Notes: generated by a model not told the origin, from the sequence alone. A DNA stretch of 64,000 nucleotides from an uncultured Verrucomicrobiae bacterium (GCA_963804875.1 CAWDRX010000003.1:139838-203837); one strand, 5' to 3'. Shown: positions 20,521 through 31,412, counted from the first letter of the stretch. Numbers and translations: made by a program.

Positions 20521-20594
20521 TGGGCCTGACTGGGCTCGAACCAGTGACCCTGCGCTTATCAAGCGCATGCTCTAACCAACTGAGCTACAGGCCC
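20521..20594 (-). tRNA. tRNA-Ile (anticodon GAT).
   Basis: Minus-strand GGGCCTGTAGCTCAGTTGGTTAGAGCATGCGCTTGATAAGCGCAGGGTCACTGGTTCGAGCCCAGTCAGGCCCA folds as a cloverleaf. Anticodon loop is TTGATAA. CCA is not encoded. Confidence 0.9.
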
Positions 20595-20621
20595 GTTGCG
20601 GCGGCTTGACCGCCGGATTTT

Positions 20622-20710
20622 AGATTTGCGATTGCCGATTTGCGATTTGTGTTCGTGGCGCGCCTCGCGCGCGCATTTACTTAAATCGGCAATCGTAAAT
20701 CGCAAATCGA
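20622..20710. repeat. Large imperfect inverted repeat (arms gatttgcgattgccgatttgcgattt and aaatcggcaatcgtaaatcgcaaatcg) around a GC-rich palindrome ggcgcgcctcgcgcgcgc.
   Basis: Seen directly in the sequence. It lies between the GIY-YIG gene stop and tRNA-Ile. Confidence 0.4.
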
Positions 20711-20738
20711 AAATGAAATGGCGAGACAAGATCTCGAA

Positions 20739-20987
20739 CTAGAGATGTCGCTTTACGAATGCACGACCTGAAGCCGATTTCAGATATCGCTCGAATTGAG
20801 CTGCCCGAGTTCGATCGGACAGTGCAATGTAGGTTTTCAGTCGCCATGGCTTCCATTTTGCGATGTGAACAATACGGCCAGAGTTGTGATTTTTGAGACG
20901 CGTCCGCAGATCGTCTGTTAGGCCCGTATAGAATCTTTCAGGATCCACTTCGCTCTGCAGAATATAAACGTAGATGAATTTGCTCAT
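20739..20987 (-). CDS. GIY-YIG nuclease-family small protein.
   Basis: FIYVYILQSEVDPERFYTGLTDDLRTRLKNHN matches the GIY-YIG core. Start set at MSKF. Confidence 0.75.
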   Translation of the reverse strand: MSKFIYVYILQSEVDPERFYTGLTDDLRTRLKNHNSGRIVHIAKWKPWRLKTYIALSDRTRAAQFERYLKSASGRAFVKRHL

Positions 20988-21102
20988 AACTGGCTTGCCG
21001 AGTCGTAGCTCGCGCGGAATGCGGGGCAAGCCAAAAAGAGGTCCGCCTTCGCCAAGGCTACGGCGCGACAGTCTTCGCTCTTTCTACGACGCGAGCGAAG
21101 AC

Positions 21103-21175
21103 TGGAGGCAAGGGGATTCGAACCCCTGACTTCCAGCTTGCAAAGCTGGCGCTCTACCAACTGAGCTATGCCCCC
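21103..21175 (-). tRNA. tRNA-Ala (anticodon TGC).
   Basis: Minus-strand GGGGGCATAGCTCAGTTGGTAGAGCGCCAGCTTTGCAAGCTGGAAGTCAGGGGTTCGAATCCCCTTGCCTCCA. Carries the G3:U70 alanine identity pair. Confidence 0.9.
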
Positions 21176-21227
21176 GAACAGAACTGCGGAATGTAGTTTG
21201 CCGGTCGCAGATTGCAATCGGAGCCGA

Positions 21228-28447: not shown

Positions 28448-28520
28448 AACTTATACACAATCAAGTCGTTTCGATCGCCGAAAGCCATAACGATGGATGC
28501 ACCAGAGGTGCTCAATACCC

Positions 28521-29076
28521 ATGAAATCTTTTTCGCTCTATCTGTTCATCGTACTGCAATTAACAGTGTTCTCCGCGGCAGGACAGCCCACTCCAACGCC
28601 TGTGCGCGACGGATCTCATGACTTCGATTTTCTTATCGGCAACTGGAAAGCACACGTGCGCCGGCTACCCGATCGCCTGGTTGGTTCCAATAACTGGATC
28701 GAGTATAACGGCATCTCGAATCACAAGAAGCTTCTCGATAGCAATGCAAATTTCGAAGAATTCGAAGTCGACAATCCGGAGAAGCACCTGCACATCAAGG
28801 GCCAGACGTTAAGATTGTACAATCCGGATTCGCATCAATGGAGCATTTATCTTCTTGATCTGGATAAGGGCGTTCTAGTCCTCCACCGGTTGTTGGGGAA
28901 TTTAATGGAAACCGTGGCGAGTTTTATGACCAGGAACAATACAAGGGTCGGGCCATTCTGGTGCGCTACGTTTGGCAAAATATTTCACCGAAAACGGCGC
29001 GAATGGAACAATCCTTCTCGGCTGACGGCGGAAAGACATGGGAAACAAACTGGATCTGCGAATTGAGTCGATAGTC
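28521..29076 (+). CDS. Secreted hypothetical protein with an apparent single-base frameshift around 28862..28890.
   Basis: ORF 28497..29066 loses protein-like character after ...LDLDKG. An alternative frame continues as PVVGEFNGNRGEFYDQEQYKGRAILVRYVWQNISPKTARMEQSFSADGGKTWETNWICELSR to a stop at 29076. Confidence 0.45.
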
Positions 29077-29093
29077 AGGAATCCCGATACGAT

Positions 29094-29531
29094 ATGAAAT
29101 TTACGACGCTTATTGTTTTTTTCGCCGTCTTGATCTGCCGATTTTCATCCGCGCAAACGGTGGCTCAACAAGAAGTTCTCCAGTTCGAGCGCGATGCTTG
29201 CAAAGCATTTCTAGACGCCGACGTGTCCGCGCTGGAGCGCGTACTGACTCCCGACTTCACGCTGACGGTCTCGAATGGCGAAGTGAGCACGCGTGCGGAT
29301 GAGATCAACGAGCTACAGAGCAACAAAGTCCATTACGACGTATTTGAAAATTACGACATGTTAGCGCGGCTTTATGGCAACGACACGGCAGTTGTTCTGG
29401 GGAAAACGCGTGTAAAAGGAACAGCCGACGGCAAAGTGTTCGATCGAGTCGTGCAGTTCACGGACACCCTGATCAAGCGCGATGGTCGGTGGCAGCTTGC
29501 CGCGGGACACATTTCGCGGCTTGAGAAATAG
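29094..29531 (+). CDS. Secreted NTF2-like / DUF4440-like protein.
   Basis: Signal peptide plus a SnoaL/NTF2-like pattern. Confidence 0.55.
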   Translation: MKFTTLIVFFAVLICRFSSAQTVAQQEVLQFERDACKAFLDADVSALERVLTPDFTLTVSNGEVSTRADEINELQSNKVHYDVFENYDMLARLYGNDTAVVLGKTRVKGTADGKVFDRVVQFTDTLIKRDGRWQLAAGHISRLEK

Positions 29532-29611
29532 GATTGATGTTTGCGGCTGACGCAGCCGCCTTTCCGAGCTTCCTGGGTTCCAGCTTTCCTGATTCGATTT
29601 TTCTGTACAAA

Positions 29612-29655
29612 CAAAATGCCGGATGTCGATTCTTACGATTCGTCATCCGGCATTG
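29612..29655 (-). terminator. Hairpin ATGCCGGATG...CATCCGGCAT followed on the minus strand by TTTTGTTTGT. Candidate terminator about 200 nt past the 16S 3' end. It shares its stem and loop 5' half with the element at 23419.
   Basis: 10-bp stem followed by a T-run on the minus strand. Same 22-nt core aaaatgccggatgtcgattctt as at 23419..23461. Confidence 0.5.
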
Positions 29656-29854
29656 CAGTCGATGTGCAGCAAAGACTGAATTGTGCGTTACCGTCTTTCG
29701 TTCTTTGAAGCCTCACTCGCTTTCGCTCGTGAGGTCTTAACGGCATGTCCAAGAACTATCGGTTGAATGCTCTTGGATTTAGCCGTCGACCTATCGCAAG
29801 AGAAGTTGAATCTCGACCTTGCGGTCTTGAGTCTAATCTCTGCGCTTTCTCCTT

Positions 29855-31412
29855 AGAAAGGAGGTGATCCAGCCGCAGGTTCCCCTACGGCTACCTTGTT
29901 ACGACTTCATCCCAGTTACCGCTCATAGCGTAGGCGGCTGCCTCCTTGCGGTTAGCACGCCGACTTCGGCTACAAGCGACTCCCATGATGTGACGGGCGG
30001 TGTGTACAAGGCCCGGGAACGTATTCACGGCGTCGTAGCTGATACGCCATTACTAGCGATTCCGGCTTCATGGAGTCGAGTTGCAGACTCCAATCTGAAC
30101 TGGGCCCAGTTTTAGTGATTTCCTCCACCTTGCGGTCTTGGATCGTTCTGTGCTGGGCATTGTAGTACGTGTGCAGCCCAGGCCGTAAGGGCCATACTGA
30201 CTTGACGTCGTCCCCACCTTCCTCCCCGTTAAAGCGGGGCAGTCTGAACAGAGTGCTCGAGCCTCACGGCTCGGTGGCAACAGTTCACAGGGGTTGCGCT
30301 CGTTGCGGGACTTAACCCAACATCTCACGACACGAGCTGACGACAGCCATGCAGCACCTGTGCAAATTGTCCCTTGCGGGACTCGCTGGCTTTCACCAAC
30401 TTAGAGATGCATGTCAAGGCCTGGTAAGGTTCTTCGCGTTGCATCGAATTGAGCCACATACTCCACCGCTTGTGCGGGCCCCCGTCAATTTCTTTGAGTT
30501 TTAATCTTGCGACCGTACTCCCCAGGCGGCACGTTTAACGCGTTAGCTCCGGCGCAGAAGGGGTCGAATCCTCCCACACCAAACGTGCACCGTTTACTGT
30601 CAGGACTACCGGGGTATCTAATCCCGTTTGCTCCCCTGACCTTCGTGCCTCAGCGTCAGGAACTGTCCAGAGACCCGCCTTCGCCACTGGTCTTCCTTAC
30701 GATATCTACGCATTTCACCGCTACACCGTAAATTCCAGTCTCCTCTCCAGTCCTCAAGCACGGCAGTATCGAATGCAGTTTCGGAGTTAAGCTCCGAGAT
30801 TTCACACCCGACTTACCGCGCCGCCTACGCACCCTTTACGCCCAATGAATCCGAACAACGCTTGAGACCTCTGTATTACCGCGGCTGCTGGCACAGAGTT
30901 AGCCGTCTCTTCCTCTTCGGGTACTATCAATGCACACGCAGTTAACGTATGCACCTTGTTCCCCAATGACAGGAGTTTACAATCCGAAGACCTTCATCCT
31001 CCACGCGGCGTCGCTCGATCAGGGTTTCCCCCATTGTCAAAAATTCTCGACTGCTGCCACCCGTAGGTGTCTGGGCCGTGTCTCAGTCCCAGTGTGGCTG
31101 GTCGTCCTCTCAGACCAGCTACCCGTCAAAGCCTTGGTGAGCCGTTACCTCACCAACTAGCTGATAGGCCGCGGGCCCCACAAGAAGCGTCAGGTTGCCC
31201 CGACTTTAATTTTGAAAGGATGTCCTCTCTAATCACATGCGGTATTAATTCGCCTTTCGGCGAGCTATCCCCCACTTCATGGCAGGTTGCCCACGTGTTA
31301 AGCACCCGTTCGCCGCTAAACTTTCCATCGTATTGCTACAACGAAAAGTCTCGCTCGACTTGCATGTCTTATCCACGCCGCCAGCGTTCGTTCTGAGCCA
31401 GAATCAAACTCT
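29855..31412 (-). rRNA. rrs: 16S ribosomal RNA, complete.
   Basis: Minus-strand 5' end AGAGTTTGATTCTGGCTCAG (revcomp at 31393..31412). 3' end ...GGATCACCTCCTTTCT (revcomp aaggaggtgatcc at 29858). Internal universal blocks GTGCCAGCAGCCGCGGTAATAC and GGATTAGATACCC are present. Confidence 0.95.

Follow-up and report, generated by a model that had tools for sequence, protein, structure and literature searches.

In Escherichia coli the rrn operons carry 16S, tRNA-Ile, tRNA-Ala, 23S and 5S in this order, together with boxA antitermination, RNase III stems and terminal intrinsic terminators. Split rRNA operons are found in Planctomycetes, Thermus/Deinococcus, Rickettsiales and Helicobacter, where the 16S gene stands apart from a 23S-5S unit in an organization conserved within each clade, the bacteria concerned being free-living or host-associated. 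These splits are independent events in clades unrelated to Candidatus Udaeobacter, which differs from them in that its old spacer tRNAs appear to have remained on the 16S side as a third unit and in that linked and intermediate relatives are on hand for comparison. Clades with unlinked rRNA genes were listed by Brewer et al. (bioRxiv 10.1101/705046). That preprint reports unlinked rRNA genes in Ca. Udaeobacter (80 of 80 long reads), and the trait in none of the 32 Verrucomicrobia genomes complete at that time. Its Udaeobacter/DA101 soil group represents the same genus and the same phenomenon as the locus described below (no 23S within 1.5 kb of the 16S), and the core finding is therefore already known. 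The reads are classed there by 16S-23S distance only. Several features described below do not appear in the passages searched: the terminator and the separate promoter of the tRNAs, the displacement of the Ala-Ile pair, the trailer-end duplication, the intermediate states and the 23S-5S locus. The preprint was the only literature source found on where the Udaeobacter 23S lies.

The window, i.e. the whole stretch of DNA analysed, is 64 kb long and comes from Candidatus Udaeobacter, a soil Verrucomicrobiota of the order Chthoniobacterales. Rfam identified in it one complete bacterial 16S gene and two tRNA genes, with zero matches to LSU or 5S over the full 64 kb; blastn queries taken from a relative's linked operon (its 23S, 5S and spacer) had no match in the window either. 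The 16S gene occupies positions 29857..31419 of the minus strand (RF00177, 1522 bits, model positions 1-1533) and shares 91-99% identity with its counterparts at Udaeobacter loci. It is followed on the same strand, after 8682 nt, by tRNA-Ala(TGC) (21103..21175) and, 508 nt further on, by tRNA-Ile(GAT) (20520..20594), both assigned by Rfam and ARAGORN; the 8682 nt in between carry genes in both orientations. An earlier note on this DNA had described these features correctly: the full-length minus-strand 16S, the absence of 23S and 5S from the 64 kb, the same-strand tRNAs 8.7 kb downstream in the order Ala then Ile, the coding genes on both strands between them and the 16S, and a GIY-YIG gene separating the two tRNAs. 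Any 23S gene of this genome is located >29.8 kb downstream or >32.5 kb upstream of the 16S. The window is unlinked as Brewer et al. define it, the 1500 bp that follow the 16S being free of any 23S gene. The trait is also kept in a coherent clade, the mark by which they set it apart from an assembly accident, as it recurs in about 50 Udaeobacter loci alongside stand-alone 23S-5S loci. The window does not correspond to a canonical linked rrn operon with contiguous, co-oriented 16S, spacer tRNAs, 23S and 5S. It may share with the E. coli rrn a boxA-like leader element, a leader-trailer stem and an intrinsic terminator at the unit end, but differs by having that terminator right behind the 16S, by lacking 23S and 5S, by the Ala-Ile order and by a putative separate tRNA promoter.

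We propose, with a probability of roughly 0.8, that Udaeobacter has its rrn operon permanently divided into three units, each transcribed on its own, which arose by a stepwise history. The 16S alone would form the first unit, with its own promoter, a boxA-like leader, an enclosing stem and an intrinsic terminator. The tRNA-Ala/tRNA-Ile pair would form the second, transcribed from a promoter ~14 nt upstream of tRNA-Ala, and the 23S-5S at a distant, separately conserved locus would be the third.

The putative promoter of the 16S unit (31762..31789, minus strand) was read from the sequence as TTGACT (31789-31784) and TAGTTT (31767-31762) separated by a 16-nt spacer, with an A/T-rich stretch ahead. 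The match is weak (8/12), as is the −10 hexamer TAGTTT, and the site was not called in a consensus promoter scan of the window. Relatives have TTGACG-N16-TAnnTT at the same alignment position, and the site probably functions as a promoter ~340 nt upstream of the 16S. The leader contains the element GATCTTTGACAG (31626..31637, minus strand). All 19 aligned leaders agree at 11 of the 12 positions of the element, and one relative has GTTCTTTGACAG. This element is a putative counterpart of the rrn antitermination boxA, and a similar sequence, GGTTCTTTGACA, is found upstream of the Udaeobacter 23S. An inverted-repeat search (repeat I1) identified a 24-nt leader arm (31558..31581) and a trailer arm (29667..29690), both on the minus strand and 88% complementary, of a long-range stem that would enclose the 16S and presumably serves RNase III-type processing. 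The trailer-arm motif TAACGCACAATTCAG hardly varies among the 51 relatives carrying it and the leader arm is near-invariant as well, so that covariation lends the stem no support. This search replaced an RNAduplex comparison of the whole leader with the whole trailer, which was uninformative (-139 kcal/mol versus -129 ± 8 for shuffled trailers).

Behind the 16S, 203 nt past its 3′ end and 12 nt past the trailer arm, starts a minus-strand hairpin with a T-run (29609..29654; hairpin 29615-29654, T-run 29609-29616). It consists of an 11-bp outer stem with six G-C pairs and an inner stem, followed by TTTTGTTTG, and has the form of an intrinsic terminator, namely a G+C-rich hairpin leading directly into a U-run. 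Its folding energy in a 91-nt context is -30 kcal/mol (z = -4), a value that none of 200 shuffled sequences attained. Pairing is maintained in 98.4% of the cells across 51 sequences, and compensatory changes occur at 5 of 11 pairs (12 divergent sequences); the homology among relatives ceases past the T-run. All 15 of 15 unlinked loci have a T-tailed hairpin (-22 to -27 kcal/mol), whereas it is absent from all 10 linked loci, where the best candidate reaches at most -7 kcal/mol in strength or there is none. The trailer hairpin is not present in one relative, L031. Its folding and conservation suggest that the hairpin and T-run end the 16S transcription unit as an intrinsic terminator. The earlier note is supported in that the 16S, unlinked from 23S and 5S, has a conserved terminator-like hairpin of its own about 200 nt downstream.

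The tRNA pair is preceded by a promoter-like site (21190..21217, minus strand), read from the sequence as TTGCAA (21217-21212), a 16-nt spacer and TACATT (21195-21190), 14 nt ahead of tRNA-Ala. The motif TTGCAATC-N16-TAnAnT lies directly upstream of tRNA-Ala in ~45 loci, irrespective of which gene is found further upstream, and was not found in linked operons; the pair is thus likely to be transcribed from a promoter of its own. Nearly every Udaeobacter locus has the same tRNA-Ala sequence (100% identity). No att-like partial copy of tRNA-Ile was detected in the window; some relatives do carry one. The spacer between the two tRNAs holds a stand-alone GIY-YIG domain gene (20739..20987, minus strand; 82 aa from ATG; Pfam PF01541, E=1.7e-13). 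The protein has no NCBIfam family match. By tblastn, loci of 10 relatives have the gene between tRNA-Ala and tRNA-Ile, and in two of these (L029, L046) it is broken into fragments. It resembles GIY-YIG homing endonucleases and free-standing genes of this type in its catalytic domain, patchy spread and decaying copies at one intergenic site, but its short product has no recognizable attached DNA-binding domain and it resides outside any intron or intein, its cleavage activity and mobility being putative. A distant GIY-YIG relative sits within an intervening sequence of a Udaeobacter 23S gene.

In the genus the 23S-5S genes occupy a separate conserved locus, assigned at the genus level and not to the particular genome that the window comes from. 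Contigs with the 16S and contigs with the 23S have different ERZ sample accessions, which do not tie them to one genome. The neighbour proteins of the stand-alone 23S-5S loci fall in 90% clusters together with NCBI proteins that bear the name Candidatus Udaeobacter sp. Of the Ile-23S spacer these loci retain no more than the 65-120 proximal nt, and neither a 16S nor the Ile/Ala tRNAs were found within 7-10 kb of them.

Using as query the MocR/PdxR-like regulator encoded between 16S and tRNAs, 80 loci were retrieved (76-96% amino-acid identity), almost all of which carry the label Ca. Udaeobacter, Chthoniobacterales or Verrucomicrobiota. About 50 of the 80 have the order 16S, MocR block, tRNA-Ala, tRNA-Ile, including long-read contigs of 0.1-4 Mb, and none of these ~50 loci carries a 23S; a complete 16S is present at 18 loci, whose contigs measure 66 kb to 4 Mb. 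The unlinking is a genus- or family-wide trait, published for Ca. Udaeobacter, and not a one-off event in a single genome. Three states can be distinguished among the relatives. Intact 16S-Ala-Ile-23S(-5S) operons were found in ten, with the reservation that the metagenome scan for relatives required tRNA-Ala directly behind the 16S trailer, an ascertainment bias that made relatives with the Ile-Ala order undetectable. The Ala-then-Ile order is hence older than the split, since the intact operons already have it; the earlier note had tied it to the fragmentation as the record of a rearrangement, an interpretation that does not hold. Nothing relevant on an Ala-Ile spacer order in Verrucomicrobia was found in the literature. 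In the second state (15 loci) the 16S-Ala-Ile segment is uninterrupted and lacks the 23S, its far-side neighbours are the same as in the window, and the terminator hairpin and the tRNA promoter motif lie between the 16S and tRNA-Ala. The third state is that of the window, with a block of genes between the 16S trailer and tRNA-Ala and trailer-end repeats on both flanks. The proposed history would begin with an ancestral 16S-Ala-Ile-23S-5S operon. A break inside the Ile-23S spacer would have placed the 23S-5S at a separate locus, and a terminator and a tRNA promoter would have arisen between 16S and tRNA-Ala. A block comprising the genes for DUF5069, the MocR/PdxR-like regulator and a HAF-repeat protein, plus variable genes, would later have inserted between terminator and tRNA promoter, duplicating the trailer end and moving the tRNAs 5-9 kb away from the 16S.

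In the window the inserted block extends from 23503 to 29531 and was annotated from Pfam and NCBIfam matches. Its plus-strand genes code for a DUF4440 protein (29094-29531), a protein of unknown function (28497-29066), an alpha/beta hydrolase (27296-28447) and a DUF5069 protein (26713-27150), and its minus-strand genes for the MocR/PdxR-like regulator (24928-26397) and the HAF-repeat protein (23503-24807). The DUF5069-MocR-HAF core is kept in all Udaeobacter loci while the remaining block genes vary; relatives with an uninterrupted 16S-Ala-Ile segment are without the block. Just past the HAF-repeat gene lies a second copy of the trailer hairpin (23427..23459, minus strand), a direct repeat with 29618-29651. 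The 64 kb contain exactly two such copies (0 expected by chance), and most relatives have them at the same two positions. The second copy spans 77-84 nt and includes the stem arm in L024, L036, L040 and L052, third copies of the trailer end are found in L013 and L024, and L075 has a 340-nt duplication that takes in the 16S 3′ end. Sel1, VWA, AraC, hydrolase, SDR and cyclase/TPR proteins are encoded in the blocks of L013, L024 and L075, in which no integrase or transposase was found. The duplicated trailer end probably marks the insertion of the block between 16S trailer and tRNA-Ala, with outgroup comparison as the basis for preferring insertion over deletion. The 16S-linked and non-linked loci are intermixed in a rough tree of MocR, and those that lack a 16S may be either paralogues or secondary losses. 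An M13 peptidase gene (21228..23397, minus strand; Pfam matches on two ORFs) lies after the hairpin copy and ahead of the putative tRNA-Ala promoter. It has a +1 frameshift near 22435, where the window is one base longer than L006, L010 and L017, and is in a single frame in six relatives. The M13 peptidase and GIY-YIG genes, of patchy distribution, are probably later accessory insertions. A tentative extension, which we regard as possible though doubtful, is that a compact terminator and promoter module, appearing between the 16S and the old spacer tRNAs, accompanied 16S-23S unlinking and that the trailer 3′ end then became a recurrent integration site, creating an rRNA-anchored flexible gene islet. 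If so, cargo blocks devoid of a recombinase gene would enter there, duplicating 45-340 nt of the trailer.

The trailer-end copies flank several independent insertions (in the window and most relatives, L013, L024 and L075), which could mean that the hairpin and T-run are mainly a hot-spot of recombination or insertion, or a structure for RNA stability or processing, and that the duplication came about by site-specific integration. This is unlikely given that the inserted blocks are free of integrases and transposases and that the unequal repeat lengths (45, 84, 133 and 340 nt) are more readily explained by homologous recombination than by a target-site duplication of fixed size. The structure moreover has the classic form of a terminator, its T-run always attached, and is missing exactly in the linked operons, where read-through to the 23S is needed. 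Terminator and hot-spot roles of the hairpin are mutually compatible.

The remaining alternatives to a three-way split question the locus itself. The rRNA content of the window's genome is seen for 64 kb, and Brewer et al. describe mixed genomes in other taxa; the 16S could then be an extra, orphan copy in a genome with a normal linked operon elsewhere. We hold this to be very unlikely, because the gene is full length with a normal score, the Udaeobacter 23S-5S loci have lost the distal spacer and have no 16S or Ile/Ala tRNAs nearby (7-10 kb), no linked operon occurs among the loci whose tRNAs are identical to those of the window, and all 80 Udaeobacter long reads in the preprint are unlinked. 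A mis-assembly join was among the outcomes that, according to the earlier note, would overturn its reading; it might have formed, for example, as a chimera where rRNA repeats had been collapsed. Many short-read contigs do end inside the 16S, and the frameshifts of the window suggest long-read indel errors. Both 16S junctions nevertheless recur in ~50 independent Udaeobacter assemblies across studies and sequencing technologies, and mis-assembly is therefore excluded for practical purposes. Equally improbable is that the tRNA pair came to lie near the 16S by chance. The 8.7 kb of unrelated genes in between would allow it, though nothing specific speaks for it, and it is effectively refuted by relatives, linked and unlinked, in which the pair immediately follows the homologous 16S trailer, and by the trailer-end copy that persists upstream of the tRNA promoter. 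The adjacency to the homologous trailer agrees with the earlier view of the Ile/Ala tRNAs as a displaced relic of the old spacer, and the split into three units stays the preferred reading.

The anatomy of the locus and the series of states are a moderately interesting addition of detail to the published unlinking. Unlinked rRNA genes are common among soil bacteria and Ca. Udaeobacter is among the most abundant of these, a genus that long-read amplicon methods spanning 16S and 23S will overlook. How unlinking originates and how separate rRNA genes are kept in balance are wider questions. With linked, half-split and split relatives side by side, the sequence can reveal the breakpoint, the terminator and promoter that are particular to the split, and the later insertions.

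Across the whole 64 kb, Rfam identified one complete bacterial 16S rRNA gene (29857–31419, minus strand, 1522 bits, model positions 1–1533) and two tRNAs, without any LSU or 5S match. The tRNAs, located by ARAGORN, are tRNA-Ala(TGC) (21103–21175) and tRNA-Ile(GAT) (20520–20594), and the minus strand reads 16S, 8682 nt, tRNA-Ala, 508 nt, tRNA-Ile. The genes between 16S and tRNA-Ala, named by Pfam and NCBIfam, are a DUF4440 gene, an unknown gene, an alpha/beta hydrolase gene and a DUF5069 gene on the plus strand, and the MocR/PdxR-like regulator, HAF-repeat protein and M13 peptidase (21228–23397) genes on the minus strand. 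A frameshift near 22435 breaks the peptidase gene into two overlapping ORFs; it has one base more there than the relatives' loci L006, L010 and L017. Found in a minority of relatives only, the gene is unbroken in one frame in six of them. The frameshift marks a pseudogene or else stems from a long-read indel error. The ORF separating the two tRNAs codes for an 82-aa GIY-YIG domain protein (Pfam E=1.7e-13). The earlier note, which described a 16S gene without 23S or 5S and with its spacer tRNAs 8.7 kb downstream, Ala first, behind genes of both strands, was correct in its observations, and its interpretation as a fragmented rrn operon is mostly correct.

One 3025-aa ORF (631–9708, plus strand) takes up the low end of the window, on the other strand from the rRNA and tRNA genes. 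A Kelch-repeat gene lying 3′ of tRNA-Ile (18100–20400, minus strand) is fragmented into several ORFs in differing frames; this stretch is missing or different in many relatives, where an MBOAT gene is found about 20 nt or less beyond tRNA-Ile. Between the GIY-YIG gene and tRNA-Ile (20617–20714), a 32-nt inverted repeat (84% complementary) made of tandem GATTTGC/AAATCG-type units surrounds a GC palindrome. In relatives, the 16S trailers are filled with short AATCG-rich repeats of a similar kind.

The 16S gene has the organization of a self-contained unit, from whose sequence we infer the promoter, the terminator and the other transcriptional features described here. An alignment of 19 leaders revealed a conserved promoter-like site about 340 nt 5′ of 16S (TTGACT-N16-TAGTTT at 31789–31762; TTGACG-N16-TAnnTT in relatives), a boxA-like element GATCTTTGACAG (31637–31626) with 11 of its 12 positions conserved, and a near-invariant leader arm (31558–31581). 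The latter and a trailer arm (29667–29690) share 24 nt of 88% complementarity, and their predicted pairing would enclose 16S in the manner of a processing stem. The hairpin noticed earlier about 200 nt past the gene starts 203 nt from the 16S 3′ end and 12 nt beyond the trailer arm; its arms (29615–29654) are followed by TTTTGTTTG. Its folding energy of −30 kcal/mol in a 91-nt context beats 200 of 200 shuffles, 98.4% of the hairpin cells are paired across 51 sequences, and the stem of 12 divergent sequences is remade with other bases, with compensatory changes at 5 of 11 pairs. Similarity among relatives stops directly past the T-run. One relative (L031) has no hairpin.

A mis-assembly join could produce such an arrangement and was considered in the earlier note. 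A search for the MocR-like protein in one genome per species, with 10-kb flanks, yielded 80 loci (76–96% amino-acid identity), nearly all labelled Candidatus Udaeobacter, Chthoniobacterales or Verrucomicrobiota. According to blastn and tblastn, every locus with enough flank (about 50) has the order GNAT gene, 16S, variable genes, DUF5069, MocR, HAF-repeat gene, tRNA-Ala, tRNA-Ile, the tRNA pair being inverted as a unit in some lineages. Eighteen of these loci carry a complete 16S gene (91–99% identical to that of the window) on contigs of 66 kb to 4 Mb. No 23S was found in the MocR loci by Rfam (11 long loci), conserved-motif scans or blastn with related 23S. The recurrence of this order, in each case without 23S, shows that the arrangement is neither a mis-assembly nor private to this genome. 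The unlinked state is real, conserved and functionally organized. Its core, unlinked rRNA genes in Candidatus Udaeobacter, is already published, 80 of 80 long reads of this group being reported as unlinked (Brewer et al., bioRxiv 10.1101/705046).

Some contigs bearing the locus (L003, L020, L021, L026, L039, L046, L047, L053) belong to species-representative MAGs labelled Ilumatobacteraceae, Alphaproteobacteria, Nitrospirota, Limnocylindria, Dormiibacterota, Acidobacteria or Pyrinomonadaceae, which points to contamination during binning; L020 and L021 are two versions of the locus from a single MAG. Locus L120 (1–10000) has an identical 16S-internal ORF but another context downstream of 16S, where the MocR block is replaced by an FG-GAP protein and by an ORF whose weak Pfam matches are gag/pol-like.

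The missing 23S was sought by searching a protein collection with a spurious ORF that lies antisense to 23S in a linked relative. Following the best abundant cluster gave contigs on which 23S-5S loci stand alone, bordered by conserved rplS, rnhB, DUF1761, HerA-like, ferritin and aldo-keto reductase genes on one side and by GNAT and Na/Ca exchanger genes on the other. None of these neighbours occurs in the window, and neither 16S nor the Ile/Ala tRNAs lie within 7–10 kb of these loci. Assignment is at genus level: the adjoining proteins cluster at 90% with NCBI entries named Candidatus Udaeobacter sp. Only the proximal 65–120 nt of the Ile-23S spacer are retained, which places the break about 150 nt upstream of 23S. 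In locus L109 the 23S gene (9868–13082, minus strand) is about 245 nt longer than other Udaeobacter 23S genes owing to an intervening sequence (12140–12425) with a 74-aa GIY-YIG ORF (12177–12401; 30% identity to the window protein), flanked by inverted repeats CCCAGCACTTTC/GAAAGTGCTGGG; a second element without ORF (12714–12806) has the same repeat ends further 5′ in the gene. Compared with the 23S of a linked relative, the Udaeobacter 23S genes of L108, L110 and L111 are extended by some 110 nt near position 1710 (around 11014–11136).

It was predicted beforehand that lineages exist in which the 16S trailer leads straight into tRNA-Ala. When metagenomes were scanned for the trailer arm with the tRNA-Ala start 95–125 nt further on, a pattern that detects Ala-first spacers only, 26 loci were returned, one of them too short to classify. 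Ten are intact 16S-tRNA-Ala(TGC)-tRNA-Ile(GAT)-23S operons (16S 83–93% identical to that of the window), with 5S present in both that reach far enough. The other 15, several near-identical and representing roughly seven lineages, have 16S-Ala-Ile without 23S; their tRNAs are mostly 100% identical to those of the window, and 12 run on into homologues of the window genes at 10.7–18.1 kb, which in the window are the neighbours on the far side of the tRNA pair. The earlier note took the tRNA order as reversed and as a record of rearrangement. Since the intact operons of relatives, within a scan that could find Ala-first spacers only, already read Ala then Ile, this order is an older trait and no record of fragmentation. 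Within the 110 nt 5′ of tRNA-Ala, all 15 unlinked loci have a hairpin (−22 to −27 kcal/mol) with a T-tail and then a TTGCAATC-N16-TAnAnT motif, neither of which is found there in any of the ten linked operons. The corresponding promoter-like motif of the window (21217–21190) lies 14 nt upstream of tRNA-Ala, and it is present in about 45 Udaeobacter loci irrespective of the preceding gene.

The gene block of the window occupies a position that, in the uninterrupted state, lies between the putative terminator and the putative tRNA promoter. The trailer hairpin occurs exactly twice in the window (0 copies expected by chance), behind 16S (29618–29651) and directly behind the HAF-repeat gene (23427–23459), as at the same two places in most relatives; the block is therefore bounded on both sides by the end of the 16S trailer, in direct repeat. 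The copy behind the HAF-repeat gene extends over 77–84 nt in four lineages (L024, L036, L040, L052), taking in the processing-stem arm, and third copies are found at further insertions in L013 and L024. In the more distant relative L075 (1–3270), about 340 nt covering the 16S 3′ end and trailer are present in two diverged copies, and the 824-aa cyclase/TPR gene between them runs in the opposite direction. The inserted blocks hold ordinary genes and no recombinase. Outgroup comparison favours insertion of the block, which would have displaced the tRNAs, rather than its deletion elsewhere, a polarity that a rough MocR tree does not decide; deletion via the repeats could restore the uninterrupted state.

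The Ala-Ile spacer varies from 54 nt to 6.8 kb among 40 loci, and tblastn found the GIY-YIG gene there in 10 relatives' loci, fragmented in two. The 6.8-kb spacer of L024 carries a divergent GIY-YIG gene adjoining a partial or degenerate second tRNA-Ala (19319–19389; 54 nt identical; Rfam 30.6 bits). Partial copies of the tRNA-Ile 3′ end (26–32 nt) sit 1.7–4.5 kb downstream of the intact gene in L015 (7548–7573), L017 (20583–20610), L019 (16664–16691) and L046 (10883–10914), with none in the window; such copies resemble the att sites of islands that inserted at this tRNA gene.

The anatomy of the 16S unit and the series of linked, split and interrupted states appear to be new to description. 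Together they make the question of how unlinked rRNA genes are regulated testable.
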